A DNA stretch of 64,000 nt from Candidatus Latescibacterota bacterium (GCA_965248355.1 OZ252098.1:224001-288000), one strand, 5' to 3'. Positions 4,095 through 26,665 are shown, counted from the stretch's first letter. The notes: a model not told the origin generated them from the sequence alone. Numbers and translations: made by a program.

Positions 4095-5831
4095 TCAGCG
4101 GCCGGAGCCTTCGGCCAGCTCGATGAACCGCCCCGCCGGCAGGTCCCGGTAGACCTCCCGGGCCCTGCCCGGCCACCAGACCTCCAGGCTGTCCACGCGG
4201 TCGTCCGGACCGAGCCCGAAGAGCACGCGGGGATCGCTCTGCGACAGGTAGCTGCGGCCGCTGCTGACCTCCCGCCACTGGGTCCCCGAGGCCGAGCGCA
4301 GGCGCAAGCGGGTGCCCTCGCCGCTGCCGGTGGCGGCGCGCCGCAGGCGCACGGACAGCCAGCCGTGGCCGCTCCCGCCCTCGTTGCGCAGCACCGACAC
4401 CCGGTCCCCGAGGTTGACCACCAGCAGATCCGGGTCGCCGTCGTTGTCCAGGTCGCCGGCGGCCGAGCCCCGGCTCACCCGCTCCTGGGCCAGTCCCGGG
4501 CCGGCGCGGGAGGTGACGTCGGCGAACAGGGTGTTGCCGTAGGCGCCGGGACCGCGGTTGTGGAACAGGAAGTTGCGCTGGCCGTAGGTCGTCGACCGGT
4601 CGAAGGAGCGCACGTTGTCGAGCACGTGGCCGTTGGCCACGAACAGGTCGAGGCGGCCGTCGCCGTCCACGTCGACGAGGTTGGTGCCGAAGGCCAGGGC
4701 CGGCACCGTGAGCGCGCCGGTTCCGGAGGAGAAGGCCTGGGGCAGGAAGAAGGATCCGTCTCCCTGGTTGCGGAAGAGGCCGTTCGGCTCCCCCTGGAAG
4801 TTCGTCACCGTGAGGTCGAGGCGGCCGTCCCCGTCGTAGTCGGCGGCGTCGATGCCCATGCCCGCCTCCGGCAGACCGCTCTCGCCGTAGGCGACGCCGG
4901 CCTGGGCGCCGCGCTCTGCGAAGGTGCCGTCCCCGCGGTTGATGAACAGGAAGTTCGGCGTCGCGTCGTTGGCCACGTACAGGTCCGTCCACCCGTCGCC
5001 GTCGAGGTCCCCGGTGATCACGCCCAGGCCCTTCCCCGAGGCCAGGTGGACGCCGGCGGCGGCGGAGACGTCGGTGAAGGCCGTCCCCCGGCCGCCGTCG
5101 TTGCGCAGCAGCAGGTCGCCGAGGCCCTCGAAGTTGTCGGGATGCGGGTACCCCTTCGGGCCGCCGGGGCCGGCGCCCTCGGAGCGGGACAGGTAGGGGA
5201 TCGTCTCCGTCCCGGCGTCGGACAATTCGTAGTCCACGTAGCGGGCCACGTAGAGATCCAGGTCGCCGTCGAGGTCGTGGTCGAGGACGGCGCAGCCGGT
5301 GCCCCAACCGCGGTCGCCGAGTCCGGCCGCGGCGGTCACGTCCCGGAAGGCGCCGCCGTCGTTCCGGAAGAGCACGTCGTCGCCGTAGTTGGTGACGTAC
5401 AGATCGTCGTCGCCGTCGCCATCGAGATCGCCGGCGACGCAGCCGTTGCCGTAGCCCCGGTGGCCGACACCGGTCCGGTCCGTCGTCTCGGCGAAGGTGC
5501 CGTCCCGGAGGCCGCGGAACAGCCGGTTGCCGGCGGCGGCCTTGTCGTCGACCGGCCCCAGGGGCTTCCCGTTCACGAGATACACGTCCAGCCACCCGTC
5601 GCGGTCATAGTCCCACAACATGACGCCGCCGCCCATGGTCTCCGGGAAGTACCGGTGCTCGCTGAAACCGCTCACGTGGGCGGCATCGAGGCCGATCTCG
5701 GCTGCCACGTCGACGAAGCGGACGTCGAAGCCTCCCGGCGCGGTCCCTTCGGACGGGGTCTCGGGGGGGAGAACCGGCTCGCAGCCCGCCAGGGCGGCCG
5801 CGGCCGCGGCCATGGGGATCCAGCGAGCCAC
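4095..5831 (-). CDS. CRTAC1-family (FG-GAP/VCBS repeats + ASPIC/UnbV) lipoprotein
   Basis: Repeated DxDxDGxxDL motifs; C-terminal GRSYLSQSDPRVLFGLG; lipobox LAGC. Start GTG 5831 or ATG 5813. Confidence 0.9.
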   Translation of the reverse strand: MARWIPMAAAAAALAGCEPVLPPETPSEGTAPGGFDVRFVDVAAEIGLDAAHVSGFSEHRYFPETMGGGVMLWDYDRDGWLDVYLVNGKPLGPVDDKAAAGNRLFRGLRDGTFAETTDRTGVGHRGYGNGCVAGDLDGDGDDDLYVTNYGDDVLFRNDGGAFRDVTAAAGLGDRGWGTGCAVLDHDLDGDLDLYVARYVDYELSDAGTETIPYLSRSEGAGPGGPKGYPHPDNFEGLGDLLLRNDGGRGTAFTDVSAAAGVHLASGKGLGVITGDLDGDGWTDLYVANDATPNFLFINRGDGTFAERGAQAGVAYGESGLPEAGMGIDAADYDGDGRLDLTVTNFQGEPNGLFRNQGDGSFFLPQAFSSGTGALTVPALAFGTNLVDVDGDGRLDLFVANGHVLDNVRSFDRSTTYGQRNFLFHNRGPGAYGNTLFADVTSRAGPGLAQERVSRGSAAGDLDNDGDPDLLVVNLGDRVSVLRNEGGSGHGWLSVRLRRAATGSGEGTRLRLRSASGTQWREVSSGRSYLSQSDPRVLFGLGPDDRVDSLEVWWPGRAREVYRDLPAGRFIELAEGSGR

Positions 5832-5832
5832 G

Positions 5833-7317
5833 TCAGCCGCCGCCGGACCGCTCTCCCATGCGGCGCAGGAAGGCGCGGGCCTCCTCCTGCAGGGCTGGAT
5901 CGGGGGAGGCGGCGAGCAGGCGTTCGTACGCGGCCGCGGCCTCGGCGCGTCGGCCGTGGCGCTTGTGAAGGCGGGCGAGGCCCAGGTGGGCGGTGGCCAG
6001 GTCGGGGTCGATCTCAAGAGCCAGACGGTAGCAGGCGGCGGCGCTGTCCTCACGTCCGGCGTGGACCCAGAGAGTCCCGAGGTTGAGGGCGGCCTGCGCC
6101 GAGGGTGCGCTGACGGCAAGGGCCCGGCGGAAAGCCGCGGCCGCAGCCTCGGGGTCGCCCTGCTGCAGGCGGACGTTGCCCAGGTTGTTGAGGGCCTCCC
6201 CGTGGTCCGGGTCGAGCGCCAGGGCTCGCTCGAGGGCGGCGGCGCCCTGGGCCAGGTCACCGCGCATCAGGAGCAGGGAGCCGAGGGAGAAGGCCAGGCG
6301 CACGTCTTCGAGCGGGGCCCCCGAGAGCACCTGCAGGGCCCGGAGCGTGTCCCCCCGGTCCCGGTACAGCCGCCCGAGCCGGAGCCGAGCGTCGGCGTGG
6401 CCGGCCTCGTAGGCCAGCACCGCCTCGTACTGGTGCGCCGCCTCCGCCTCCAGGCCGTCCCGCAGGAGCGTGCCGGCCAGCGCCAGGCGGGCCTCCACGT
6501 CGTCGGGCCGGCCGTCGAGGAGCCGGCGCAGCTGCTCGACCTCGCCGGCGCCCTGCCGAAGTCGCTCGAACCGTTCCAACAGTCTCTGGCCGCGCTCTCG
6601 ATCCCCCGAGGCGATCAGGGCGTTGGCCAGGCCGAAGAGGGCCTCGTGGTCCCGAGGGTCCAGTTCCACCGCGCGCTCGAAGGAAGCCGAGGCTCCCTCC
6701 ATGTCGCCGCGGGCCCGCTTGGAGACGGCCAGCAGGCGGTGGCTCGCCGCGTCTACGGGGTTTGCTCTCAAGGCCCGTCCAAGCTCCCTGTTGGCTTCGA
6801 CGTAGCGGCCGAGGCGGACGTACAGCTCTCCGAGGTGCCGGTGGGCGGCCGGGTCGCCGCTGCGGGCGGCCTCCCGGAAGGCCGCCTCGGCGCGCCCGTA
6901 TTCCCCCACCTTCATGCTGAACAGGCCGAGGGTCAGGTGGGAGGCTGCGAATCCGGCGTCGAGGTCGACGGCGCGCTCGAGTGCGGCCACCGCGTCGTCC
7001 AGGCGGCCCAGGTCGGCGAGCACCACGGCGAGGTTGTGGAGGACCTCCACCCGCCCGGGGTCGAGGGACAGGCAGGCCCGGTAGTGGGCCGCGGCGGAGT
7101 CCAGACGACCGAGCCGGGCGTGGACGTTTCCCAGGGCGGCGTGTGCTCGTGGGTCCGCCTCCGAGGCCAGCTCGGCGCGCAGGAGCGCCATGGCCTCGGC
7201 ATAGCGACCCTTCGCCAGATGCTCATCGGCTGCGGTGGCTTCCCCGGACGGTTGCGGTGAGGGGGAGCAGGCCAGGCAGAGCGTCAGCAGAAGGGGGAGG
7301 CTCGATCGTGGATGCAT
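5833..7317 (-). CDS. Tetratricopeptide repeat lipoprotein
   Basis: MHPRSSLPLLLTLCLAC lipobox; many TPR motifs (ALELDP..EALNNLG). Confidence 0.88.
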   Translation of the reverse strand: MHPRSSLPLLLTLCLACSPSPQPSGEATAADEHLAKGRYAEAMALLRAELASEADPRAHAALGNVHARLGRLDSAAAHYRACLSLDPGRVEVLHNLAVVLADLGRLDDAVAALERAVDLDAGFAASHLTLGLFSMKVGEYGRAEAAFREAARSGDPAAHRHLGELYVRLGRYVEANRELGRALRANPVDAASHRLLAVSKRARGDMEGASASFERAVELDPRDHEALFGLANALIASGDRERGQRLLERFERLRQGAGEVEQLRRLLDGRPDDVEARLALAGTLLRDGLEAEAAHQYEAVLAYEAGHADARLRLGRLYRDRGDTLRALQVLSGAPLEDVRLAFSLGSLLLMRGDLAQGAAALERALALDPDHGEALNNLGNVRLQQGDPEAAAAAFRRALAVSAPSAQAALNLGTLWVHAGREDSAAACYRLALEIDPDLATAHLGLARLHKRHGRRAEAAAAYERLLAASPDPALQEEARAFLRRMGERSGGG

Positions 7318-7328
7318 CGGTGAGACGG

Positions 7329-7356
7329 AACCTAAGGAGGCGCACCACCAGGGCAA
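7329..7356 (-). promoter_or_regulatory. Putative sigma70 promoter for the TPR-CRTAC1 pair
   Basis: TTGCCC-N16-TAGGTT on the minus strand, about 12 nt before ATG 7317. Confidence 0.35.
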
Positions 7357-7413
7357 GACACCCCTCTCACAGATGCCCGAGCCCCGGGAGGCCCCTCCGC
7401 GCGGGGCGGCCGT

Positions 7414-7441
7414 TTGCCGGCCCTCGGGGACGCGCTATCTT
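7414..7441 (+). promoter_or_regulatory. Putative sigma70 promoter for the CBM9-like gene
   Basis: TTGCCG-N16-TATCTT in the divergent intergenic region. Confidence 0.4.
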
Positions 7442-7524
7442 ACCGCCCGGTCCCCCAATCATCCCGCTCGACTCTGGACAATCGGCTCCCGGCAAGAGGG
7501 TGCCTCCGGCACCGCGACCAAGTG

Positions 7525-8451
7525 ATGAGCGCAGCATGCAAGAGCTCAGCTCCGGCCTTCGGCATCCGAGCCCTCGGCTTGGCCGTTCTCCTGGCGGCGA
7601 CGGCGGCCAGCAGCCATCTGCCCGATGGCCAGGAGATCTCCGCCTTCCAGTTTCCCGAGGGATCGGACCCCGAGGTCGACGGCCTGTTGGCAGACTGGGC
7701 CCTGGCTGGCCCGGCGACCCTGAGGACCGAGGATTTCATCGATCTCGTCGGTGGGGCCGCGGTCGACCCCGAGGATCTCGAGATCCTGGTGTGGGTCGGC
7801 TGGAGCCCGCACACCAATCGCCTCTACATCGCCGCCCAGGTCCGCGACGACAACCACCAGGTCGACCGCCCCGAGGGGACGGCCGCCACCCGCATCTTCC
7901 AGGACGACGACCTTGAGGTCTTCCTCGACGGCGACCACTCGGGCGGCCAATACGCGGACTTCAGTGATCTCAGCGGCAGCGAGCAGCTGCAGCGCAACGG
8001 CGCTCAGGCGAGCCACTTCGTGCTCGCCGGGCCCCACGACGACGGGGACTTCTTCGTGAACTACTCCGCCGCCGCCTGGTACTCCGAGCCCGACGGGGCG
8101 TACACCCGGGCGGCGCTGGCCATCGAGGGCGCCACGGGGGGCCCCGCCGTGGTCCGCTACGAGCTCAGCCTGGCCATCTTCGACGAGATCGACATGACGG
8201 CCGATTTCCTCAGCCGCCGGCGGCGGCTGGCCGAGAACGACGTCATCGGCTTCAACTTGGAGTTCTCCGACTACGACGGCCACTCGGAGTTGCTCGACGC
8301 CAAGTGGTCCCTGTCTGGCGGACACAACGCCTTCCGGCTGGCCGAGCGCTTTTCCGACCTGCGGCTGGAGCCACCGGTTTTCACCCGGGTCCAGCCCTCG
8401 ACCTGGGGCCGAATAAAATCTACATTTGCCTCGCCCCGAACGCTATATTAA
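7525..8451 (+). CDS. Secreted CBM9-like/DOMON-like protein with C-terminal TWGxIK motif
   Basis: Signal peptide; PEVDGLLADW, LYIAAQVRDD, DDLEVFLDGD, YELSL, IGFNLEFSDYD are CBM9-like hallmarks; ends VQPSTWGRIKSTF... Confidence 0.75.
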   Translation: MSAACKSSAPAFGIRALGLAVLLAATAASSHLPDGQEISAFQFPEGSDPEVDGLLADWALAGPATLRTEDFIDLVGGAAVDPEDLEILVWVGWSPHTNRLYIAAQVRDDNHQVDRPEGTAATRIFQDDDLEVFLDGDHSGGQYADFSDLSGSEQLQRNGAQASHFVLAGPHDDGDFFVNYSAAAWYSEPDGAYTRAALAIEGATGGPAVVRYELSLAIFDEIDMTADFLSRRRRLAENDVIGFNLEFSDYDGHSELLDAKWSLSGGHNAFRLAERFSDLRLEPPVFTRVQPSTWGRIKSTFASPRTLY

Positions 8452-8458
8452 GCCCCCG

Positions 8459-9211
8459 ATGACTCGATCCCACCGCCTGCGACGCTCGCTCTGGCTCCCG
8501 GCCGTTCTGGGGATGCTGTGTGGCGCGTCCGGCTGCGGTTACTATCATTACGCCGGTCCCCTGCAGCCATCCCTCGAGCAGCCGCCCGGGATGGCCGCAG
8601 ACGAGCGTGGAGTCGTGTTCGCCCAGGAGGAGTTCCGGGTCGAGGTGCGGGCCCTGACCGATGCCGATCTCAATCGCCAGTTTCTCCCCCACTCGACCTC
8701 GGGTCCAAAGTCGACCAATTCCTACACCTTCGGCGACACCCGCTTCTGGGAGGGAGATGCCGAGCGTTCCCGTTTCACCACGTTCCACCTCCGGGTCGTC
8801 AACCATCGCTACCCGAAGGTCAAGATCGATCCGGCGCGCATCGTCCTGCGGGCGGGGGGCGGAACCGAGTACTGGAGCCTCCAGTTGCAGCAACTCGATA
8901 CCTACTACCGGGCCTATGCGACCGGCTTTCGCGGAAACGAGTATGCCCGGTACCAGGAGCGCCTCGATCTGTTGCGGCGGACGCTCTACAAGAATGTGGA
9001 GGTCTTCGTCGGGCAGGAGGCGGAGGGATTCGTGATCTTCCCCGTCCTCCATCACGACGTGAGCGAAGTCGAAGTCGTCATCCACGATGCCGTGTTGCGG
9101 TTCGACTACCGCAACGAGCCCGTGGAGACAGTACGGATCAACGGCCGGTTCGAACGCGACATCGGCCGGATCTTCCGCGATGGTCGCCTCGAGATCGAGG
9201 CGACCGGCTGA
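8459..9211 (+). CDS. Hypothetical lipoprotein
   Basis: Hydrophobic N-terminus with ASGC lipobox; coherent ORF heading the downstream operon. Confidence 0.7.
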   Translation: MTRSHRLRRSLWLPAVLGMLCGASGCGYYHYAGPLQPSLEQPPGMAADERGVVFAQEEFRVEVRALTDADLNRQFLPHSTSGPKSTNSYTFGDTRFWEGDAERSRFTTFHLRVVNHRYPKVKIDPARIVLRAGGGTEYWSLQLQQLDTYYRAYATGFRGNEYARYQERLDLLRRTLYKNVEVFVGQEAEGFVIFPVLHHDVSEVEVVIHDAVLRFDYRNEPVETVRINGRFERDIGRIFRDGRLEIEATG

Positions 9212-9264
9212 TGTCCCGCCAGGGCCCGCGGGGAGCGCGGGCGGCCAGCAAGGAGGAGCCCCAA

Positions 9265-10200
9265 ATGGCAAGCAGGATCACCTTCACTCTGTCTATAGTC
9301 ATCGGTCTGGCCCTCGCGTCAGGAGCCGATGCGGTGGTGAACATCCAGAATCTGGGGGCCGGCGCCCGGTCGGCCTCCCTCGGCAACGCCTTCGTGGCGG
9401 TGGCCGACAACGGCGATGCGATGTTCGCCAACCCGGCCGGTCTGGCGACCTTGTCGGGACGTCAGCTGGCCTACACGAACGTGTCGCTGTTGCACTCGGG
9501 TCTCGACGACGACGACCTGGGTCAGCACGTGGTGTCGCTGACGCAGCCGTTGGGCGGGCGCCTGGCGCTGGGCGTGGGCTACGAGCGCATCGGCTCGGAC
9601 CAGATGTCGGAGAACGGCGCGTTTCTGGGGCTGGGCTATCGCCTGAGCCGCGACCTGCATCTGGGTCTGACGGGCAAGTACGTGTTCTGGCAGGTGGCCG
9701 CCTTCGACAGCAACGACCCGGTGTCGGGGCAGAGCGCGGGCTCTGTGGGCGCCGACGTGGGGCTGCTCTGGCGGACGCCTTTCCGGGGGGCGCGGCTGGG
9801 GGTGCAGCTGAAGAACGCGCTGCAGCCGAACGCCACCTGTGACTGTGCGGCCAACGGCGCGTCTCTGGCGTCGGGGGCCGGGGACCTTCCGATGGATCTG
9901 TCGGTGGGTCTGAGCCACCGCCGGGACCAGATGCTGTTGTCGGTTCAGTGGACGGTGCGGGACGTGGGCGGCGACGGTTCGGAGAGCCGTCTGGTGGTGG
10001 GCGGGGAGACGAGCCTGGTGGAGGGCTTGATGCTTCGCGCCGGTGGCAGCCGCATCTTCGAGGAGGACGCCCAGGGCGATCTGAACGCGGGATTGGGCTA
10101 TCGCTGGAAGAAGATGCTGTTCGACTACGGCTACCACATCCCCCTCGACCTGGCCGAGGCCAACGGTTCCCACCGCTTCTCCCTGGCCTGGCAGTTGTAA
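9265..10200 (+). CDS. PorV/PorQ-family (FadL-like) outer-membrane beta-barrel protein
   Basis: RBS AAGGAGG; signal peptide; GAGARSASLGNAFVAVADNGDAMFANPAGL hatch signature; C-terminal strand HRFSLAWQL. Confidence 0.82.
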   Translation: MASRITFTLSIVIGLALASGADAVVNIQNLGAGARSASLGNAFVAVADNGDAMFANPAGLATLSGRQLAYTNVSLLHSGLDDDDLGQHVVSLTQPLGGRLALGVGYERIGSDQMSENGAFLGLGYRLSRDLHLGLTGKYVFWQVAAFDSNDPVSGQSAGSVGADVGLLWRTPFRGARLGVQLKNALQPNATCDCAANGASLASGAGDLPMDLSVGLSHRRDQMLLSVQWTVRDVGGDGSESRLVVGGETSLVEGLMLRAGGSRIFEEDAQGDLNAGLGYRWKKMLFDYGYHIPLDLAEANGSHRFSLAWQL

Positions 10201-10218
10201 GGAGAGGAGACTCCTTCC

Positions 10219-13200
10219 ATGACGCTCTGGATCGGGCTGATCGCACTGGGACTGGGACTGGGCTCGAGCCTGTTCATCCCGGTGCCGCAAACGCTGAAGA
10301 CGAATTTCGACGCCGGCCAGAGCCTCTATGCTCTGGGCGAGTACGAAGGCGCGATCCTCGAGTACTCGAAGATCGTCAAGTTCGACAGCCGGGCCGTGCG
10401 CACCGACAGCGTGCGCGTCAGCTTCGGTGACGAGCTCGAGCTGCCGGTGATGGCGGCCGCCTGGTACCAGCTGGGCAACGCCCGCATGCGCAGCGGCCAG
10501 CATGAAGAGGCGGTGGACGCCTTCCGCGAGGTCATCGCCATGGAGTCGGTGGATGAGGACTTCCGGTCCCTCGTTCAGTTCCGCGTGGCCGAGACCCGCT
10601 TCCTCCAGAAGGAGTTCGAGAAGGCGGCCGAGGAGTACAAGCGCTACGCCGAGCTCTTCCCCACCTCGGACCTGGCCGGAGAGGCTTACTTCTACTCCGG
10701 CTGGAGCCAGTTCAATCTCGAGCGCTACGACGACGCGATCGGCACGCTTCGGGGCATGCTGGAGGCCTATCCCGGGGACCGCTACGCCTCCGACTCGCAG
10801 TTCCGCATCGCCTCTTCCTACTACGAGAAGGAGCAATACCAGAAGGCCGTTGACGAGGCCGAGATCGTCCTCGAGGCCTACCCCAGCAGCCCCGTCATCG
10901 CCCAGGCCACCTACCTGAAGGCGCAGGCCTTCGACCGGATGGAGCGTAGCGACGAGGCGATCGCCAGCTACCGGGAGGTGCGCGATCTCTACGACCGGAT
11001 GTACGAGTTGCTCCGCGGCTCCTTCCGGGAGGGCAAGAACGTCGACTTCGACAACTACCGGCAGCTGTTCGAGACCTCCTCCCTCCGCGTCGCCGAGATC
11101 TATCGGCGCAACGGCCAGTTCGAGGAGGCCTACCAGGAGTTGATTGCGGCACAGGAGACGGCCGAGGAGCGGTTCTACAAGGCCAAGGTGCAGATGCGCC
11201 TCGGCGACAACTACATGGAGTGGGGCCAGAAGGTTGAGGATCAAGCGCAGAAGCAAGAGCGTTTCGAGGAGGCCTACACCACCTACAACCAGGTGATCGA
11301 GCTCTACGGGGACACGCCGTACCCGCCTATCGCCCAGTACAACAAGGGCGAGGCCCGCTACTTCGCCCGGGACTACGGCGAGGCCCGCCAGGAGTACACC
11401 GCCGTCGCCACCCTCTATCCGGACAGCGAGACGGGCCTTCGGGCGAACGCCTTGTACAGCGCCGGCTGGTCTTCCGAGAAGCTGGACGACTTCGAGGCCG
11501 CCCTCGACATGTACGGCCAGGTGGTGGAGAGCTTTCCGCGCTCCGACCAAGCGCCTCTCTGCCTGTTGCGGATGGGCCGCGTCAACACGGAACAGCAGCG
11601 CTTCGACGAGGCTATCGAGGCCTACCGCATCATCGCGGAGGACTACGGCGAGACCCGCCATGCCGCCGACGCCAACTACGGGCTGGGACTGCTGTACAAG
11701 CAGCGAGGTGAGTTGGACAGCGCCATCGACGCCTTCTCCCGCGTTGGCCGGGAGGCCCGCGAAGTCTACGTGGCTTCCCTGATCGAGGCTGCCAACATCC
11801 ACATCGAGGCCGGCCGTTCCGAAGAGGGCCGCCAGGTCCTCGATCAACTGCTGGCGGGCGTCACCGGTGACCGCGTCCTGGAGGCGCAGGCACACTACCA
11901 GATCGCCCAGCTCGACCTGAACAATGACAACTACCTGGACGCCATCAATCGCTACACCAAGGTCATCGACGAATACCCCGAGTCCGACGTGATCCGGGAG
12001 GTTCGCTACGGCCGCGCTCTGGCGTACCACAAGGCGAATCGGTTCTCCAGGGCCCTGGCCGACTACCAGTGGCTCCTCCATCAGAACCTGCCGGAGAGCA
12101 TGGAGTTGAAGGTCAACTTTGCCATGGCCCTGTCCTTCGCCGCCCAGGGGCAGGATGCGGAGGCCACCGAGCTGTTGACGCAGGTGATCGAATCAGGCGA
12201 CGAGACGCTGGCGCGCAACGCCCAGTTGCAGCTGATCTCCATGGCCGAGAAGCAGGACCCGGAGGACGCCATCCGCACCTATGAGGACATGCTCTCCCGT
12301 CTGACGACGCAGGAGGACAAGGTGCGCGTCCTCATCCGCATGGCCAGCGCCTACTTCCGCCTCGGGCGGTACGAGCAGAGCGTGGCCGCCTCGCAGCAGC
12401 TCCTCGATCTGGCCACCGACGCGGAGGATATCGCCAACGCCTTGTTCGTGCAGGGCAACAGCCACTTCCGAGCCGGCGAGCTGGAGAAGGCCATCCAGAC
12501 TTACCAGACCATCGTCGACAACTACCCGCAGATCGGATGGGCGCGCAACGCTCAGTTCCAGATCGGCGCCGCGTACAACCAGATGTCCGGCGACGGCAAC
12601 GTCCAGTACCTGCCCTACGTGGCCGAGGCCTTCCAGTCGTACTACACGGCCTACGCCGATGACGAGAAGGCCGTCTACGCTTACTACTACAGCGCCTTTG
12701 CCGAGTACCGGATGGGCAAGTGGCGCGAGTCCAGCGAGACTTTCCAGGAGCTGGCCTCGCGCTTTCCGCGCTCGGAGTTCGCCCCCCAGTCCCTGTTCCG
12801 TGCGGGCGAGGCGGTCTTCAACCTGGCCCAGGGAGAGTCCCGGGAGAACAAGAAGGGCGTTTTCCGGGACGCCATGCGCAAGTACGACTCCGTGCTGGGC
12901 CGCTACCCGCGGTCCGACGTGGTCGACGACGCTCTCTACAACAAGGCCTGGGCCATTATCCACTTGTCCGATCTCGGGGAGGAGTACACGAAGGCCGACG
13001 CGCTTCCGTTCTTCGAGCGCATCGTAGCCGAGTATCCGGACGGCGATTTCGGCGCCGCCAGCCAGTTCACGCTGGGCGACTACTACTACGGCGAGAAGGA
13101 GTACGACCTGGCCTCGGCGAGTTACCGGAGATTCCTCGAGCTGTTTCCCGAGCAGCGCCTGAAGGCGAAGGACCGGGCCTTGCGCCGCAAGGCGTCGGTC

Positions 13201-13512
13201 CTCCTCGGCCACCTGTCGGAGATCGAGGCTTACAACGAGTACGCCGCGGGTGAGTCCCTGTTCGACGGCAAGCAGTACGAGGAGGCCATCGAGGTCTTCA
13301 AAGAGGTGATCGAGCGCTTTCCGGAGAGCGACCAGGCGGTCAATGCGGCCGTCAATATCGCCTCGGCGTACATGGCCCTCGAGGAATACCGCAAGGCGGC
13401 CGAGGAGTTCCAGCAGGTCGTCCAGAAATACGGGGGGATACAGCGGTTCTCCCCCCAGGTGGATTTCTCGAGGCAGCAGTTGCAGGCGCTCGAGGAAGCG
13501 CGTGTCCTGTGA
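10219..13512 (+). CDS. Very large TPR protein (BamD/CpoB-like repeats), 1097 aa
   Basis: RBS GAGGAG; N-terminal hydrophobic anchor; many repeats of the YP.S..A..A.Y..G type. Confidence 0.9.
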   Translation: MTLWIGLIALGLGLGSSLFIPVPQTLKTNFDAGQSLYALGEYEGAILEYSKIVKFDSRAVRTDSVRVSFGDELELPVMAAAWYQLGNARMRSGQHEEAVDAFREVIAMESVDEDFRSLVQFRVAETRFLQKEFEKAAEEYKRYAELFPTSDLAGEAYFYSGWSQFNLERYDDAIGTLRGMLEAYPGDRYASDSQFRIASSYYEKEQYQKAVDEAEIVLEAYPSSPVIAQATYLKAQAFDRMERSDEAIASYREVRDLYDRMYELLRGSFREGKNVDFDNYRQLFETSSLRVAEIYRRNGQFEEAYQELIAAQETAEERFYKAKVQMRLGDNYMEWGQKVEDQAQKQERFEEAYTTYNQVIELYGDTPYPPIAQYNKGEARYFARDYGEARQEYTAVATLYPDSETGLRANALYSAGWSSEKLDDFEAALDMYGQVVESFPRSDQAPLCLLRMGRVNTEQQRFDEAIEAYRIIAEDYGETRHAADANYGLGLLYKQRGELDSAIDAFSRVGREAREVYVASLIEAANIHIEAGRSEEGRQVLDQLLAGVTGDRVLEAQAHYQIAQLDLNNDNYLDAINRYTKVIDEYPESDVIREVRYGRALAYHKANRFSRALADYQWLLHQNLPESMELKVNFAMALSFAAQGQDAEATELLTQVIESGDETLARNAQLQLISMAEKQDPEDAIRTYEDMLSRLTTQEDKVRVLIRMASAYFRLGRYEQSVAASQQLLDLATDAEDIANALFVQGNSHFRAGELEKAIQTYQTIVDNYPQIGWARNAQFQIGAAYNQMSGDGNVQYLPYVAEAFQSYYTAYADDEKAVYAYYYSAFAEYRMGKWRESSETFQELASRFPRSEFAPQSLFRAGEAVFNLAQGESRENKKGVFRDAMRKYDSVLGRYPRSDVVDDALYNKAWAIIHLSDLGEEYTKADALPFFERIVAEYPDGDFGAASQFTLGDYYYGEKEYDLASASYRRFLELFPEQRLKAKDRALRRKASVLLGHLSEIEAYNEYAAGESLFDGKQYEEAIEVFKEVIERFPESDQAVNAAVNIASAYMALEEYRKAAEEFQQVVQKYGGIQRFSPQVDFSRQQLQALEEARVL

Positions 13513-13596
13513 CACGGACTTGCATCACCATATGAACCCTTGCTCAGCGATACGGGCAGAAAGCTCTGAGCTTTAACTCAAGGAGGATCAGCGATC

Positions 13597-14247
13597 ATGC
13601 TGGAGTTTTTCCAAGACGGCGGACCGTTCATGTGGCCCCTTGGCCTGTGGTCCATCATGGCCCTCGGGTTCTTCATCGAGCGCATCGTCACCTATGCGCG
13701 GATGCGCTCCGAGGATGAGTTAGCCGAGGTCACCAACGACGTCACCGGCCGCATCGACTCCGGGGCTTCCTTCGATCAGCTCCAGGAGTACTGCAGGGAG
13801 ATCGGCCGTCTGGAGGGTGACGTCTACGCCGAGGGGATCGAGCGCTTCGGGCACCTCTCCCGCGAGCAGCGCAGCATCGAGGAGATGCGCGCCGAGATGA
13901 ACGGCACGGTAGAGCGTGCCGCGAGCAGCTATCTGGAGCGCTACCTGTCGGTGATCCAGTTCGTGGCCAGCTCGGTCGTGCTCCTCGGCCTGCTGGGAAC
14001 GGTGAACGGAATGATCCGCGCCTTCGAAGGCATCGCCGAGAAGGGACTGGGTGAGCCGACCATCGTCGCCGCCGGCATCTCCGAGGCGCTGATCACGACG
14101 GTGACGGGTCTGGTCATCGCCGTGCCCTCCCTGGCCATCTACACCTACTTTTCCCAGCGCGCCGAGGGCAAGGGGATTCAGTTCGAGCCCTACGGTCATG
14201 GATTCGTAGATGCCCTGCTGCGCCGCTGGCAGGGCCAGACCGTCTAA
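13597..14247 (+). CDS. exbB: MotA/TolQ/ExbB proton-channel family protein
   Basis: GGPFMWPL start; LLGLLGTVNGMIRAF; AGISEALITTVTGLVIAVP; RBS AAGGAGG. Confidence 0.93.
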   Translation: MLEFFQDGGPFMWPLGLWSIMALGFFIERIVTYARMRSEDELAEVTNDVTGRIDSGASFDQLQEYCREIGRLEGDVYAEGIERFGHLSREQRSIEEMRAEMNGTVERAASSYLERYLSVIQFVASSVVLLGLLGTVNGMIRAFEGIAEKGLGEPTIVAAGISEALITTVTGLVIAVPSLAIYTYFSQRAEGKGIQFEPYGHGFVDALLRRWQGQTV

Positions 14248-14269
14248 CCGCGGGTGCGCGGAGGCTGAG

Positions 14270-14677
14270 ATGGCACAGGAAAAGAGGCGCTACGACGAGA
14301 AGCCGGACCTCACGCCGATGATCGACGTGGTGTTCCAGTTGCTGATCTTCTTCATGGTAACGGCGGTCTTCGCCATCACGCCCGGTCTCGACATCAAGCT
14401 GCCGGAGGCGGAGGAGGCCCAGGCGCCCGAGAAGGAGAACCTGTTCATCGTCGTCGATCAGGACGGCAACATGAAACTGAATCACCAGACGGTGACTTTC
14501 GCCAACCTGAAGGACCGGATCCAGGAGAAGCGCCAGATCCTGGACAACACGACGATGATCATCATACAAGGGGACGAGCGCGCCACCCACGGCCAGATCG
14601 TGCAGATCATGGATATCGCGCGCCAAGTGGGGGTGGTCGACCAGATCATCGCCACCGAGCCGCAACGAGGGAAGTAG
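14270..14677 (+). CDS. exbD: ExbD/TolR biopolymer transport protein
   Basis: LTPMIDVVFQLLIFFMV with the essential Asp; IIQGDERATHGQIVQIMD. Confidence 0.93.
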   Translation: MAQEKRRYDEKPDLTPMIDVVFQLLIFFMVTAVFAITPGLDIKLPEAEEAQAPEKENLFIVVDQDGNMKLNHQTVTFANLKDRIQEKRQILDNTTMIIIQGDERATHGQIVQIMDIARQVGVVDQIIATEPQRGK

Positions 14678-14688
14678 CCGCCGCCAAC

Positions 14689-14713
14689 GCCCCTCCGGCC
14701 TGGCCGGAGGGGC
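14689..14713. other. Perfect GC-rich inverted repeat between exbD and the DUF4159 gene
   Basis: GCCCCTCCGGCC-T-GGCCGGAGGGGC; no U-tract follows. Confidence 0.6.
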
Positions 14714-14742
14714 TCCGTTGAACCAGGCACGGGGAACGGAAA

Positions 14743-16083
14743 GTGGAAGAACGCAGAAAGATACTCTACGGCTCCTTTGGGATCGCCACCCTCCTTCACG
14801 TCCTCATCTTCGGGTTCTTCTCGAAGGGGGAGATGCTGGCGCTCAACGCCCTGCTCGGCGTGGCGCTCATCGTCGTTCTGTGGCGGGCCACGGCCGGCCG
14901 TCGGGGAGCCCTGTTCGTGAGTCTCGCGGTGGCTGTATGCATCGAGGCCGTCGCCTGGGGCGTTGCGTGGTACTACGAGCAGCAGGTCACCGAGGAAGAG
15001 ACGAAGCTGATCCGCTTCCAGGCGCCGCCGCCGATCCTGGAGAAGAACTTCGACCTGGCCAAGAAGCCGGAGATCTCCGAGGTGCAGATGGAGATGCTGG
15101 CCTCGCTGTCGCCGCCGGATCTGCCGACCGACATCAACGCCATCGCCGACGTGAGCGCCGTCGGTTCCGACCTGCTCGGGGCGGTTCTGCCCGGCAGCCA
15201 GGTGCTGGGCACGTTCTCCGGCGCCAAGGCGGAGGAGCTGGCCTTCGACGAGGTCGAGATGATCGAGCTCACGGAGACGGCTGCCCCGGTCCAGGAGGCA
15301 CTGAGCCTGAAGCAGGAGTTGCTGAACGTTCAGGACCTCGACTTTGGCCGCTATCAGGCGATCCTGATCCAGGACCCGGAGAACAAGCGCAACATCAAAG
15401 GGTTCTTCAACATGAGCGTCATCGACTACGACCTGGCGAACAAGAGCACCGACCGCTTCCCGACCGCCGTGGAGGAGTTGATGCGCTACATGCGTGACAA
15501 TACGCGGATCAACGCCCAGATCGAAGGGGTGACGTTGCGTCTGAGCGACACGCAGATCTTCAAGCAGCCCTTCCTCTACATGACGGGGAACAACGCGATC
15601 TTCCAGTTCTCCCAAACGGAAAGGGAGAACATGGGCGAGTACCTCCGTCAGGGCGGGTTCCTGTACGCGGAGGATATCCGCCATGCCAATTCGGCGGGCA
15701 GCCTGGAGGACACTGGCGCGGGAACGGCCGGGACCATCTTCGACCGCCAGTTCAAGGCGCTCATGAAGGACGAGCTCGTGCTCTCCGGTGACGGCGCCCG
15801 GTGGCAACGGGTCACCAAGGACCATCCCCTGTTCGAAAGCTTCTACGACTTCGGCGACGGTCCCCCCAAGGGAGGCGCGCCGGGGGGCAACGTCTTCGAC
15901 CTCGAAATGCTGGAGCTCCGCGGTCGAGTCGCGGTGGTATTCTCCGACCTCAACATCAGCTGGTACTGGGGCGATCCGAATGCCGACGCCCGGGAGAGAG
16001 GCCTGCAGTTCGGCGTCAACCTGATCGTCTTCGCCCTGACCCAGCCCGGCGGCATCGCCAACGTCAGTCAGTACTCCGAGTAG
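14743..16083 (+). CDS. Membrane-anchored DUF4159-domain protein with Pro/Glu-rich linker
   Basis: N-terminal TM helices; C-terminal QPFLYMTG...EYLRQGGFLY...HPLFESFYDF...GVNLIVFALT resembles DUF4159. Confidence 0.8.
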   Translation: MEERRKILYGSFGIATLLHVLIFGFFSKGEMLALNALLGVALIVVLWRATAGRRGALFVSLAVAVCIEAVAWGVAWYYEQQVTEEETKLIRFQAPPPILEKNFDLAKKPEISEVQMEMLASLSPPDLPTDINAIADVSAVGSDLLGAVLPGSQVLGTFSGAKAEELAFDEVEMIELTETAAPVQEALSLKQELLNVQDLDFGRYQAILIQDPENKRNIKGFFNMSVIDYDLANKSTDRFPTAVEELMRYMRDNTRINAQIEGVTLRLSDTQIFKQPFLYMTGNNAIFQFSQTERENMGEYLRQGGFLYAEDIRHANSAGSLEDTGAGTAGTIFDRQFKALMKDELVLSGDGARWQRVTKDHPLFESFYDFGDGPPKGGAPGGNVFDLEMLELRGRVAVVFSDLNISWYWGDPNADARERGLQFGVNLIVFALTQPGGIANVSQYSE

Positions 16084-16105
16084 CCAGAAGGTTTCGAGCC
16101 GACGT

Positions 16106-16140
16106 CACGAGCCCGGTCGAATGGTGCGACCGGGCTCGTG
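16106..16140. terminator. Probable bidirectional terminator hairpin between convergent genes
   Basis: 14-bp perfect stem CACGAGCCCGGTCG / CGACCGGGCTCGTG with a 7-nt loop. Confidence 0.65.
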
Positions 16141-16158
16141 CTCGTTCTCGCCGCACGG

Positions 16159-17913
16159 TCAGGATCCACCGGACCACCCGGCTCCCTGTCTCAGGCTGTG
16201 GGCGCCGGCGGCCAGTTGCCAGCGCTCCCGGCTGCCGTCGGACCAGCGTACGGTGACCGACGCCCCGGAAGCGCCGTCCAGTCCCACGTGAATCCTCGGA
16301 TCCGAGGCGGACAGGTAGCTGCCGGCGCCGTGAACCTGGCGGTGGAGCACGCGCTCGCCGAACCGGACCTCGATTCGGGCCCCCAGCCCGCTCCGATTGC
16401 CGGGCTGTCCCGAGACCAGGCTCAGGCTCAGCCCGGTGGATCCGCTCCGGTCGTTGCGCAGCAGGCGTGGCCCCCCTCCGTTGGTGGTGAGAATCAGATC
16501 CTCATCGCCGTCGTTGTCGTAGTCTCCGGCGGTCAGGGCGCGGCTCACGCGGGGCCGGGCCTCGGCCATCCACGACGCCTCTTCGGTGAAGCGGCCGGCG
16601 CCATCGTTGACCAGCAACTGGTCGGGTTGGGCATGTGACAGGCTGCTGTCGATGTCGGCGATGCGGTCGAGGACGTGACCGTTGGCGACCGCCAGATCGA
16701 GATCGCCATCGGCGTCGACGTCGAACAGGGCGGCGCCGAATCCGAGGGGGAGGAAGCTGGGTGAGGCCAGTCCGCGGAATCGGGTCTCGTCCGTGTACGC
16801 CGGGGCGTGCCGTCCGCCGTGGCGGTAGAGGGTGTTCGTCTCGCGGGAGAAGTTGGCCACAACCAGGTCCGGCCAGCCGTCTCCGTCCACGTCTCCGAAG
16901 TCCGCGCCCATGCCGGCCTCGGCGCGGCCGTCGGCATTGAACCGCACTCCCCAGGCCAGGCTGGTCTCCGTTACCCGGGGTGAGCCGCTGGTCCCGGTGT
17001 CGTTCCGATAGAGGAAGTTGGCCTCGCCGTCGTTGGCCACGAACCAGTCCGTGTCGCCATCGAGGTCGATGTCGGCCATGGCCAGCCCGAGACCGCGTCC
17101 GACGCCGGAAAGGCCTGCCTCCAAGGTCACGTCGGTCATCCTCAGGTCTCCCGTGCCGGCCTCGTTGAGGTAGAGGAGGTCCCGGGTCCCCGGATACCGG
17201 TCCGGATCGCAGTAGGTACGGATCGAGCCCCGGCGGCAGACCGGGATCCGGGCCGCGTCGAAGGGGACGTAGTTGACGACGACGAGGTCGAGGTCTCCGT
17301 CGAGATCGATGTCGACGAAGCCCGTTCCCGTGCCCCATCGGCGATCGTCGACGCCCATGGCTTCGGCCCGCTCCTGGAACCGCCGGTTGCTCTGAAGCAG
17401 CAGGGCGTTCGGGCCGACGTTGGTGACGAACAGATCGACGCCGCCGTCTCCATCCACGTCGGCGGCGGCCACCCCCATCCCGTAGCCGTCCTCTCCGGCT
17501 CCGGTGGCGTCGGTGACATCGACGAACCGGACGGGAAAGCCGGACCTCCCTCCGAGGTTCCGGTAAAGCCGGTTGGTCGGGGGCGCACGGACCCCATCGG
17601 AGTCCAGGAGAGTCCCGCCCTGGATCAGGTAGAGGTCCAGCCAGCCGTCGCCGTCGTAGTCGACCCAGGCGGCCCCTGCGCCAAAGGTCTCGGGACAGGC
17701 GAAGCGGCCGTCGGCGCCGCTGTCGTGCACGAAGTCGATCCCCGCGGACGTGGTGACATCGGAGAAGACTCTCGGCGGGGCCCCGGCGGAAGGATCTCCG
17801 CCCGAAAGCCCGCAGCCGAGACAGGAGAGCGAGAGGATGAAGCCGAAGAGCCTGGAGGGACGGGACAGAAGGGATGGCCCGGCAAGGCGTGGGGGCCCCG
17901 CCGCCTGGGTCAC
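16159..17913 (-). CDS. CRTAC1-family (FG-GAP + ASPIC/UnbV) protein
   Basis: DYDGDGWLDLY repeats; GAGSYLSASDPRIHVGL; lipobox-like CLGC. Start uncertain (GTG 17913 chosen). Confidence 0.88.
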   Translation of the reverse strand: MTQAAGPPRLAGPSLLSRPSRLFGFILSLSCLGCGLSGGDPSAGAPPRVFSDVTTSAGIDFVHDSGADGRFACPETFGAGAAWVDYDGDGWLDLYLIQGGTLLDSDGVRAPPTNRLYRNLGGRSGFPVRFVDVTDATGAGEDGYGMGVAAADVDGDGGVDLFVTNVGPNALLLQSNRRFQERAEAMGVDDRRWGTGTGFVDIDLDGDLDLVVVNYVPFDAARIPVCRRGSIRTYCDPDRYPGTRDLLYLNEAGTGDLRMTDVTLEAGLSGVGRGLGLAMADIDLDGDTDWFVANDGEANFLYRNDTGTSGSPRVTETSLAWGVRFNADGRAEAGMGADFGDVDGDGWPDLVVANFSRETNTLYRHGGRHAPAYTDETRFRGLASPSFLPLGFGAALFDVDADGDLDLAVANGHVLDRIADIDSSLSHAQPDQLLVNDGAGRFTEEASWMAEARPRVSRALTAGDYDNDGDEDLILTTNGGGPRLLRNDRSGSTGLSLSLVSGQPGNRSGLGARIEVRFGERVLHRQVHGAGSYLSASDPRIHVGLDGASGASVTVRWSDGSRERWQLAAGAHSLRQGAGWSGGS

Positions 17914-17972
17914 GGCGGCGGGGCCGTGTGGTGCCGAGCCGGGAAGATACGACCTGTCGGCGGGCAGGACCG

Positions 17973-18647
17973 TCAGAGCGCGTGCTTGATGGTCCCCCAG
18001 GTGACCGCCGTAACCTGGGTGGGGACCTCCACCGAGGCCTGCTGGCCGGGCAGGGCGCCCGGGGTGCCGAGCTCGGTGGACCCCGGATCCCAGCCGCTGG
18101 ACTCGGTGGCCGTGGTCCATGAGTCCTTCTCGTCGCCGCGGGCCTCCAGGTCGGTCCGGACCATGGCCGCCTTCGTCTCTCCGCTCAGACCGCCGAAGGG
18201 CGCGCCCCGTCCGTCGTCGATCCGGTCGATGACCGATCCCGACTCCGGCGGACCGTCGTACAGACGGAGGTGGAGCTTGGTGTTGGGCAGAGACACCTGT
18301 GGATCGACGAGAGAGGGAACTGTCGCCAGGCGCGAGCGCTCGTCGTCATGGCCGTAGTTGGAGATGAGAAAGACCTCGCCCGGCGCGAGCTGGCCGGACT
18401 CGATGAGCACCATCACGTTCTCGTCTTCGCCGTCGCCTCGGGTGATCGTCCAGCCGGCGAGGTCCACCGTCTCGGAACCGCGGTTGAAGAGCTCGATCCA
18501 CTCGTCGGAGCTGGAGGCGGAGCTACCCGCCCACATCAGCTCGCTCACGACGACGGACCCCGGCTCCTGGCCGGCGCCGGCGCCGACGCCGGCCAGGATC
18601 AGCCAGCCCGTCAGCCAGGGGGATGTGGGCAACACTCGAGTCAGCAT
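17973..18647 (-). CDS. Secreted lamin-tail-domain protein with C-terminal TWGxIK motif
   Basis: VVVSELMW...DEWIELFNRGSETVDLAGWTI is the LTD signature, with GTPG near the end; ends TQVTAVTWGTIKHAL; RBS GGGAGG. Confidence 0.85.
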   Translation of the reverse strand: MLTRVLPTSPWLTGWLILAGVGAGAGQEPGSVVVSELMWAGSSASSSDEWIELFNRGSETVDLAGWTITRGDGEDENVMVLIESGQLAPGEVFLISNYGHDDERSRLATVPSLVDPQVSLPNTKLHLRLYDGPPESGSVIDRIDDGRGAPFGGLSGETKAAMVRTDLEARGDEKDSWTTATESSGWDPGSTELGTPGALPGQQASVEVPTQVTAVTWGTIKHAL

Positions 18648-18714
18648 GGGGATGCCTCCCTTGAAGGGGTGTGGGGTGGGCGAGGAGACCTCTCTCGCCT
18701 TTCGGGGCGCCGTC

Positions 18715-18730
18715 TGCAACTCCCGTGCCG
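18715..18730 (-). promoter_or_regulatory. Putative sigma54 (-24/-12) promoter upstream of the LTD gene
   Basis: Minus strand CGGCACG-GGAG-TTGCA with exact GG-N10-GC spacing. Confidence 0.55.
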
Positions 18731-18909
18731 GCCCCCGTCCCCATGCTGAATCCCTCTGTCCTGCAGTCGGTTGGGAGATCTACTCGTGAATTCGGCCAGG
18801 CCGCGGTCGGTGTGGCCGTGGGCTCACACTCGTGGCGACGGAAGGACCCGGCCCGCAGGCATCTCCCTCCACGGAGGGCCGAAGAGGCTGGTGGGGAGCT
18901 GGAGTTGGA

Positions 18910-26625: not shown

Positions 26626-26665
26626 ATTGCGGGCCTGTGGCCGTTTGCCGATCATTGGCCCGGTC

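Follow-up and report, generated by a model that had tools for sequence, protein, structure and literature searches.

Gram-negative cells are known to supply their outer membrane with inner-membrane energy by only a few routes: Ton, Tol, Agl-Glt, the GldLM motor of the type 9 secretion system (T9SS), and a class of transducers with a von Willebrand factor type A (vWA) domain proposed in 2025. Here we describe a gene cluster of Candidatus Latescibacterota bacterium that may represent a further route. It occupies positions 8459-16083 of a 64,000-nucleotide stretch of DNA (GCA_965248355.1 OZ252098.1:224001-288000), which as a whole is referred to below as the window, and it encodes a PorV-like outer-membrane barrel, a giant tetratricopeptide repeat (TPR) protein, an ExbB/ExbD-family motor and a protein with a DUF4159 domain. 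Judging from the encoded sequences, we consider it moderately probable that the cluster specifies a machine that transmits force across the envelope in the manner of Ton, Tol and Agl-Glt, made of non-canonical parts and acting on an outer-membrane complex that includes the PorV-like barrel. It looks like an undescribed variant, a non-Ton, non-Tol system that carries force derived from the proton motive force (pmf) across the envelope.

Among described systems, this operon comes nearest to the vWA force transducers (Williams-Jones et al. 2025, PMC12204202). According to the sections of that paper available to us, transducers of the TonB/TolA type have a membrane helix with an SHLS histidine that binds the rim of the motor, a 'motor box' in the disordered stretch behind the helix, a domain II that spans the periplasm, and, at the C-terminus, a domain of globular build. 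The new class has a vWA domain at its C-terminus and is encoded in operons of the order TPR-tolQ-tolR-tolR-transducer; no function is assigned to it there. Neither DUF4159 nor PF13709 is mentioned in that paper or its supplement, and Latescibacteria are not named in its main text. The closest architectural analogy is offered by the Agl-Glt machinery of Myxococcus xanthus, which in the available parts of its descriptions unites a motor of the TolQR type and transducers whose disordered linkers are long with a periplasmic TPR pillar of >1000 amino acids (aa), with barrels and a lipoprotein in the outer membrane, and with a surface protein (PMC3169522, PMC11761067). Its giant TPR protein GltD has been modelled as a pillar between the TonB-like GltG/J and the barrels (PMC11761067, as far as available).

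The genes of the Latescibacterota cluster are one conserved unit and not chance neighbours. A profile scan with a 14-sequence alignment of the DUF4159 protein (g6), limited to one genome per species, yielded 242 loci, the best 80 of which were kept; most of these are labelled Candidatus Latescibacterota, with further ones assigned to Gemmatimonadetes or to other phyla. Gene order was then followed by tblastn with the seven window proteins (g0 to g6, Table 1) over 78 loci, two standalone DUF4159 paralogues (L075 and L079) having been set aside, and only loci with enough upstream sequence were counted. Among testable loci, the genes found upstream of g6 comprise ExbD (72 of 72), ExbB (68 of 68), the TPR gene (51 of 51) and the barrel (39 of 42), while the lipoprotein g1 and the CBM9-like g0 are found upstream in 31 of 39 and 31 of 38, respectively. 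No violation of the gene order was encountered in any of the 78 loci, which is why we regard the cluster as a single unit; conservation of the order had been put forward as a check in the first-pass annotation of this DNA, and it holds. The core of barrel, TPR, ExbB, ExbD and DUF4159 genes is kept over G+C contents of 0.47-0.70 and down to 48-50% g6 identity, and it is still present in low-GC lineages (0.47-0.59) whose g6 identity is near 50%. At one locus (L071) it starts directly after pfk-gap-pgk and, because it begins right behind these glycolysis genes, the barrel can be taken as the first core gene. The core module is made up of barrel, TPR, ExbB, ExbD and transducer, with g0 and g1 as lineage-specific accessories.

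One could imagine that only ExbB, ExbD and the DUF4159 protein cooperate, the barrel, the TPR protein and the upstream genes being co-transcribed neighbours with separate roles in the envelope. Such a division would accommodate the three loci without an adjacent barrel, the coming and going of g0 and g1, and the general promiscuity of TPR proteins. We nevertheless hold it to be very unlikely, given the upstream counts of the TPR and barrel genes, their constant order, the short gaps and the wide span of G+C content, and given that the linkage of TPR, motor and transducer recurs in an unrelated transducer class.

By sequence, g4 and g5 are clear members of the MotA/TolQ/ExbB - ExbD/TolR family of 5:2 stators, with 87.1 bits for PF01618 (gathering score 22.9) and 99.5 bits for PF02472 (gathering score 25.4). 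The first-pass annotation had asked whether the pair groups with canonical Ton or Tol motors. Judged by hidden Markov model (HMM) scores only, it stays far below every ExbB, ExbD, TolQ and TolR equivalog cutoff: g4 reaches 77.3 bits against TolQ (cutoff 221) and 57.1 bits against ExbB (TIGR02797, cutoff 206.2), and g5 reaches 68.1 bits against TolR (cutoff 127.3) and 48.8 bits against ExbD (TIGR02803, cutoff 152.95). Among solved structures the two proteins are at about the same distance from TolQ/TolR as from ExbB/ExbD, the nearest PDB entries of g4 being TolQ 8vlw/9avi (E = 2e-10) and ExbB 5sv0 (E = 2e-9). The membrane Asp of ExbD is invariant in 20 of 20 sequences, and T135 and T168 of ExbB in 17 of 17, so the motor looks functional. 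These residues are presumably the conserved motor positions of the E. coli proteins (for ExbB, in helices 2 and 3).

ExbD shows 100% identity at loci where g6 shows just 88-90%. At five loci (L032, L035, L045, L051 and L060) an orthologous g6, 58-65% identical to that of the window, is preceded by a different ExbD with only 28-32% identity to the window protein. Four of these loci also show a different ExbB (25-32% identical); in the fifth, L032, the contig ends too early for this gene to be seen. The motor of L035 consists of one TolQ-like and two heterologous TolR-like genes, and the gene spacing leads us to infer the same composition for L045, L051 and L060. Since different motors accompany the same g6 in these five loci, the link between g6 and a motor outlives the replacement of the motor.

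The first-pass annotation had envisaged an ExbBD motor and the giant TPR protein acting on the barrel. The TPR protein is certainly there, but the coupling role fits the DUF4159 protein better: because of its TonB/TolA-type anchor helix, the conserved box behind that helix and its long disordered linker, g6 would be the best candidate for coupling the motor to the outer membrane. PF13709 is the sole Pfam match of the protein (102.3 bits). [quoted passage not shown] A Foldseek search with the globular domain matched the uncharacterised Hoch_4089 structure 4i66 (target-normalised TM-score, TMt, 0.81; E = 1.8e-10). The remaining matches are ThuA-like, glutamine amidotransferase and IFT52 N-domain chains, all with E of at least 6e-3, and no vWA or TonB chain is among the matches listed.

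The likeness to TonB and TolA lies in the N-terminal half of g6. His occupies the anchor-helix position in 34 of the 38 aligned relatives, and four positions before it 33 of the 38 have Ala or Ser, where the comparison with the SHLS motif covers S/A-x3-H only. More distant orthologues possess a single SxxxH helix. Three-helix forms, the window protein included, carry a second AxxxH in the first helix, and most of them keep SxxxH in the third. Behind the helix follows a box (about residues 90-112) in which F92, P97, L99 and P109 are nearly invariant. It is found in 71 of 81 sequences, and all of these 71 have [SAG]xxxH in a hydrophobic helix upstream. Of the ten sequences without it, one is a Tyr variant and the rest are truncated or frameshifted sequences or standalone paralogues. 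A predicted complex of two copies of ExbD (residues 40-135) with g6 (residues 82-135) scored 0.00 in both runs, which were made without controls, and gives no verdict either way.

The family to which g6 belongs is large. Full-length relatives number 316 at E <= 0.001, with identities of 65-97% for the best 120 of the 316, and the few that are named are all labelled Candidatus Latescibacterota. An exhaustive search returned 938 relatives at the same threshold, many of which are 410-430 aa long, 25-30% identical over their full length and equipped with a single N-terminal helix; a profile search aimed at this distant group found 439 proteins. Several distant single-helix relatives (P0437-P0439, and likewise P0432, P0442 and P0449) have their longest contig in common (2.36 Mb and 4.2 Mb), which suggests multiple paralogues per genome, as is the case with TonB. 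A tblastn search with a distant relative against plasmids gave no match. In a literature search on DUF4159 only the Pfam database paper names the domain.

How, then, does this locus compare with the described systems? With the vWA class, in so far as the available sections characterise it, the locus shares the operon order TPR-motor-transducer, the form with two TolR genes being seen in L035, and the plan of g6 resembles that of the vWA transducers in the His-bearing SHLS-type helix, the post-helix box, a disordered domain II of ~100 residues and a head that is not of the TonB type. The differences are that the head is a 4i66-like DUF4159 domain, with no vWA chain among its listed structural matches, that a PorV-family barrel belongs to the unit, and that most of the g6 clade has three helices and not one. 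What is new here with respect to the vWA class is the DUF4159 head and the added barrel; the operon grammar and the transducer plan were already known. Like Ton, the cluster has an ExbB/ExbD-family motor with conserved Asp and Thr residues, and the gene after exbD encodes an [S/A]xxxH anchor helix, a linker and a globular domain. It differs from Ton in lacking a TonB C-terminal domain and a plug-bearing receptor of 22 strands, in its scores against the ExbB and ExbD equivalogs, which are far below cutoff, and in its candidate partner in the outer membrane, a 14-strand barrel of the PorV/FadL type. The first-pass annotation had noted that a TonB receptor, a TonB C-domain and TolB/Pal are missing, and this proved correct: searched with Pfam and NCBIfam, the seven cluster proteins yield no match to TonB_C, TolA, TolB, Pal/OmpA or a receptor plug, and the other open reading frames (ORFs) of the window that were scanned yield none to a TonB C-domain or a plug receptor. 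The resemblance to Agl-Glt is architectural only. In the available descriptions GltG and GltJ have TonB-like C-terminal domains, which g6 lacks, one gene of the Glt barrel region is described as OmpA-like, and the Glt system also has a cytoplasmic platform (PMC3169522, PMC11761067). The operon grammar and transducer plan shared with the vWA class, as far as that class is described in the sections at hand, together with the DUF4159 head and the PorV-type partner, point to a force-transduction operon that would be neither TonB- nor TolA-based.

The putative target of the transducer, g2, is PorV-like at the level of family and fold only. It scores 77.9 bits (E = 1e-21) against the PorV/PorQ family model NF033709, whose cutoff is 90, over profile positions 3-325 of 326; against the PorV equivalog NF033710 it reaches 21.4 bits (cutoff 250) and against the PorQ equivalog 30.5 bits (cutoff 220), and the PorV2 equivalog is likewise below cutoff. 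The AF2 model, built on 22 orthologues (pLDDT 77.8), has 14 strands. Its top Foldseek matches are 8gl6_F and 6h3i_F, two chains of type 9 secretion complexes that we take to be PorV (query-normalised TM-score, TMq, 0.71; root-mean-square deviation, rmsd, 4.5-4.6), and FadL, TodX and TbuX come behind them (TMq 0.56-0.67, rmsd 7-11.6). Of the PorV-like barrel claimed in the first-pass annotation the family and fold likeness survives, with both PorV cutoffs missed, and the plain FadL transporter that it had named as an alternative is a poorer match than the T9SS-complex chains. The N-terminal segment of the barrel is highly conserved. One locus has two PorV-family barrels: besides the one ahead of the TPR gene, a second (NF033709, 66.5 bits) sits immediately behind g6 (L062:11194-12156). 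In a lineage without an adjacent barrel (L064:132-5486, L069:7-1707) the TPR gene is preceded by a gene for an 876-aa protein of no family.

A barrel of this kind raises the question whether the cluster is an accessory module of a T9SS, in which the barrel would serve as a PorV/PorQ/PorP-type cargo shuttle or anchor, the TPR protein would take the place of PorW/SprE and ExbBD would provide power instead of, or beside, GldLM. The likeness is evident: an organism of the FCB (Fibrobacterota-Chlorobiota-Bacteroidota) group that also has a weak type-B-like C-terminal domain here combines a barrel of PorV fold, nearest in structure to the two T9SS-complex chains, with a TPR component and a pmf motor of the 5:2 type. 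The type-B-like domain terminates a 5'-open ORF at 1-1440 (+), where it scores 25.3 bits for FlgD_ig and 23.2 bits for CHU_C, both below the cutoff of 27, and contains a TPNGDG-type motif; its resemblance to the type-B sorting domain of the T9SS is weak. The barrel has weak matches to PorV_fam, PorQ and PorV2, barrels of related loci weakly match PorP/SprF, the TPR protein has a sub-threshold match to PorW/SprE (93 bits against 250), and at L064 an 828-aa protein encoded two genes upstream of the TPR gene has a weakly FlgD/PorU-like C-terminus. We still find the T9SS module quite improbable. The motor is ExbBD and not GldLM, barrel and TPR protein miss every T9SS equivalog cutoff, the TPR match is one of repeats, the tail of g0 described below is a short motif and not a T9SS C-terminal domain, and no SprA or GldK/L/M/N match was found among the window ORFs scanned. 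Literature searches that combined Latescibacteria or Latescibacterota with T9SS returned no paper linking them, and a search for PorV, ExbB and ExbD returned none on such a cluster, judged by title and abstract. The T9SS-related or novel trans-envelope system that the first-pass annotation had inferred thus fares well in its second half, there being a conserved unit with intact motor residues, and poorly in its first.

The FadL, TodX and TbuX matches, which are close in structural terms, and the conserved N-terminal segment of the barrel would also suit energised uptake, in which a FadL/PorV-type channel has its N-terminal plug pulled by the DUF4159 transducer while the CBM9-like protein and the lipoprotein capture a substrate at the surface. 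The combination of barrel, lipoprotein and binding protein recalls uptake loci, and g0 carries a CBM9-like carbohydrate-binding domain. Even so, no glycoside hydrolase or inner-membrane transporter co-travels with the cluster, the two presumptive capture proteins are absent in several lineages in which the core persists, and a TPR protein of this size has no counterpart in uptake systems. The complete identity of ExbD in loci where g6 is ~90% identical is, moreover, a better fit to a core envelope role than to a substrate-specific locus. Uptake is in our judgement unlikely.

The giant TPR protein itself consists of approximately nine modules of the YbgF/BamD type behind an N-terminal hydrophobic segment, TIGR02795 and TIGR03302 each matching in nine stretches (291 bits, cutoff 90.1, and 233 bits); the full-length CpoB model NF008068 gives 100.6 bits with a cutoff of 383. 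We presume it to be a periplasmic scaffold. Its modules also invite a comparison with Tol-Pal, namely an alternative version of that system for outer-membrane stability or division, with the TPR protein as CpoB, g6 as TolA, and barrel and lipoprotein in the roles of TolB and Pal. The motor is TolQ/TolR-like, g4 and g5 scoring slightly higher against the TolQ and TolR models than against ExbB and ExbD, the TPR modules are of the CpoB/YbgF type, g6 has a TolA-like topology, one locus was returned per genome record, and sequence conservation is very strong. Against this, the cluster has no TolB propeller, no Pal or other peptidoglycan-binding domain and no TolA domain III, its TPR protein is nine modules long, and a canonical tolR-tolA-tolB-pal-cpoB locus is entered for one Latescibacteria metagenome-assembled genome (MAG) in the available supplement of Williams-Jones et al. 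(2025, PMC12204202). To the extent that this entry is representative, the cluster is not likely to be the Tol-Pal system of the phylum, and we see a slim prospect for an alternative Tol-Pal.

The force-transduction machine that we favour would work as follows. In the inner membrane, ExbB and ExbD would assemble into a 5:2 stator driven by the pmf, and the [S/A]xxxH helix of the DUF4159 protein would dock on the rim of the ExbB pentamer, as the helices of TonB and TolA do. The conserved post-helix box would act as a motor box and engage the periplasmic ExbD dimer, the disordered linker of ~110 residues would cross the peptidoglycan, and the DUF4159 domain would grip a complex in the outer membrane that is based on the PorV-like barrel. 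As periplasmic scaffold, the giant TPR protein would play a part akin to that proposed for GltD in Myxococcus. The barrel might then be gated, or its conserved N-terminal plug segment pulled, in order to pass, expose or hold a secreted partner, for which the tail-tagged CBM9-like g0, together with the lipoprotein g1, is a candidate.

Several observations weigh against this mechanism. The window's own clade has Glu in place of the anchor-helix His: at the position of Glu68 in the window protein, 34 of 38 sequences have His, three including that of the window have Glu, and one has Leu. The His is replaced by Glu in L001-L011 and L040 (by Leu in L010 and L040), and among three-helix forms Glu or Leu is restricted to this closest clade. 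The AF2 model shows no beta-strand at the post-helix box of g6. The N-terminal module of distant relatives was found fused to DUF4159 only, among 120 listed of 129 matches, and never to a TonB C-domain, so that the resemblance to TonB is a matter of pattern and topology and not of demonstrated homology. Short DUF4159 proteins of about 290-306 aa at L075:9809-10729 and L079:905-1774, with no anchor helix and no motor genes nearby, are a separate standalone branch of the domain family, and the existence of short secreted forms without a nearby motor implies that the domain is not intrinsically coupled to one. Three loci (L064, L066 and L069) have no adjacent barrel. Finally, the work done at the outer membrane, be it gating of the barrel or pulling of a plug, is a best guess.

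The first gene of the operon, g0, adds a feature of its own. Its Pfam match to CBM9_1 is marginal (23.7 bits, cutoff 23.4) and its Atlas neighbours are CBM9_1 clusters. The product ends in [S/T/G]WGx[I/L/V]K, and 30 of 32 orthologues share this tail. When all stop-to-stop ORFs of >=120 aa from the window and from the 80 loci are taken together, the motif turns up 38 times among the last 30 residues and not once in the 773,514 other residues; 31 of the 38 sites are in g0 orthologues and seven in unrelated proteins. Two sites are in the window, at 8401-8418 (g0) and at 17985-18002 (minus strand), and 36 are in L001-L080. One of the unrelated carriers is a lamin-tail-domain protein (17973-18779, minus strand). 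The first-pass annotation had described the surrounding genes as encoding secreted proteins with conserved C-terminal tails, and this is true of the two window ORFs with a TWGxIK tail, whereas the type-B/CHU_C-like domain of ORF 1-1440 stays below cutoff. No membrane helix follows the motif, so it is not a signal of the exosortase type, and a literature search for the motif retrieved no relevant paper. The tail may be an unrecognised sorting tag. One could go further and picture an ExbBD-powered sorting machine for [S/T]WGx[I/L/V]K-tagged proteins, a self-contained functional parallel of the T9SS in which pmf energy would reach the barrel through the DUF4159 transducer and the giant TPR protein, and the barrel would read the tag and pass or anchor the cargo at the cell surface, g0 being the cognate one. 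This is a long shot; if true, it would amount to a novel route of secretion or surface display that employs a new class of TonB-like transducer.

The second accessory gene, g1, encodes a lipoprotein that carries a signal peptide along with a lipobox Cys. Its 17-sequence alignment has a mean column identity of 70%; it has no Pfam or NCBIfam family, and the Atlas gives only unnamed lipoprotein clusters.

The features of the operon are compiled in Table 1. The window has a G+C content of ~70%, for which reason long spurious ORFs are common, and reading frames were chosen by G+C at third codon positions (GC3). On this basis the span 8459-16083 holds six real plus-strand genes and not five. The first-pass annotation had placed a single barrel gene at 8459-10200; GC3 switches frame near 9200, within this span, and the single gene is rejected in favour of a lipoprotein gene and a barrel gene. 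A 560-aa ORF at 8518-10200 has a spurious 5' half by the same measure, and the ExbD start of the longest ORF, 14210, is replaced by a probable ATG start at 14270. The giant TPR, ExbB/ExbD and DUF4159 proteins are present as first annotated. Because g0 is separated from g1 by only 7 nucleotides (nt) and co-travels with the cluster in most testable loci, the unit begins ~930 nt upstream of the start noted earlier (8459).

Table 1. Features of the putative force-transduction operon, in window coordinates
Feature	Position	Strand	Basis and remarks
g0, secreted CBM9-like protein, 308 aa	7525-8451	+	Pfam CBM9_1, signal peptide; accessory first operon gene
g1, conserved lipoprotein, 250 aa	8459-9211	+	GC3, lipobox Cys; accessory gene
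g2, 14-strand outer-membrane barrel, PorV/PorQ/FadL superfamily, 311 aa	9265-10200	+	NF033709, AF2, Foldseek
g3, giant TPR protein, 1097 aa	10219-13512	+	Pfam TPR families, TIGR02795, TIGR03302
g4, ExbB/TolQ-family stator subunit, 216 aa	13597-14247	+	PF01618
g5, ExbD/TolR-family stator subunit, 135 aa from ATG 14270	14270-14677	+	PF02472
g6, DUF4159 protein, candidate periplasmic force transducer, 446 aa	14743-16083	+	PF13709, AF2
Perfect 14-bp GC-rich hairpin, 7-nt loop	16106-16119 / 16127-16140		Sequence and fold

The picture of a co-directional cluster closed by a strong hairpin, drawn in the first-pass annotation, is accurate. All genes from g0 to g6 are on the plus strand, with gaps of 7, 53, 18, 84, 22 and 65 nt, and the perfect hairpin is located between convergent stop codons. 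The 75-nt spacer that contains it folds at -39.3 kcal/mol (z = -3.45), and none of 200 shuffled sequences folds as well; it is likely a bidirectional terminator. A consensus terminator scan did not list the hairpin, because no T run follows it. A sigma-70 promoter scan of 7000-16600 found no sites, and Rfam and tRNA scans of the window gave no match. Minus-strand genes bracket the operon on both sides; the upstream one encodes a TPR protein of 507 aa, and the downstream one a CRTAC1-like FG-GAP/UnbV_ASPIC protein. Two such CRTAC1-like proteins flank the operon, at 4095-6260 (-) and 16159-18120 (-), and the position of the downstream gene is kept in the closer relatives. Elsewhere in the window, a 1618-aa ORF at 26627-31483 (+) has a weak M28 peptidase match and a C-terminal FtsX-like permease domain; it is followed by two ORFs without a family, at 31503-33989 and 34011-35135.

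To our knowledge the phylum Latescibacterota has no cultured members, and the tail motif is maybe an unrecognised sorting signal in Candidatus Latescibacterota. The cluster itself would add a DUF4159-headed transducer to the few known routes of energy delivery, and it would give DUF4159, a domain with a solved structure (4i66) and no function, its first functional context. Unlike the vWA class, the operon offers a candidate target in the outer membrane, the PorV-type barrel, and so makes it testable what a non-TonB transducer pulls on.

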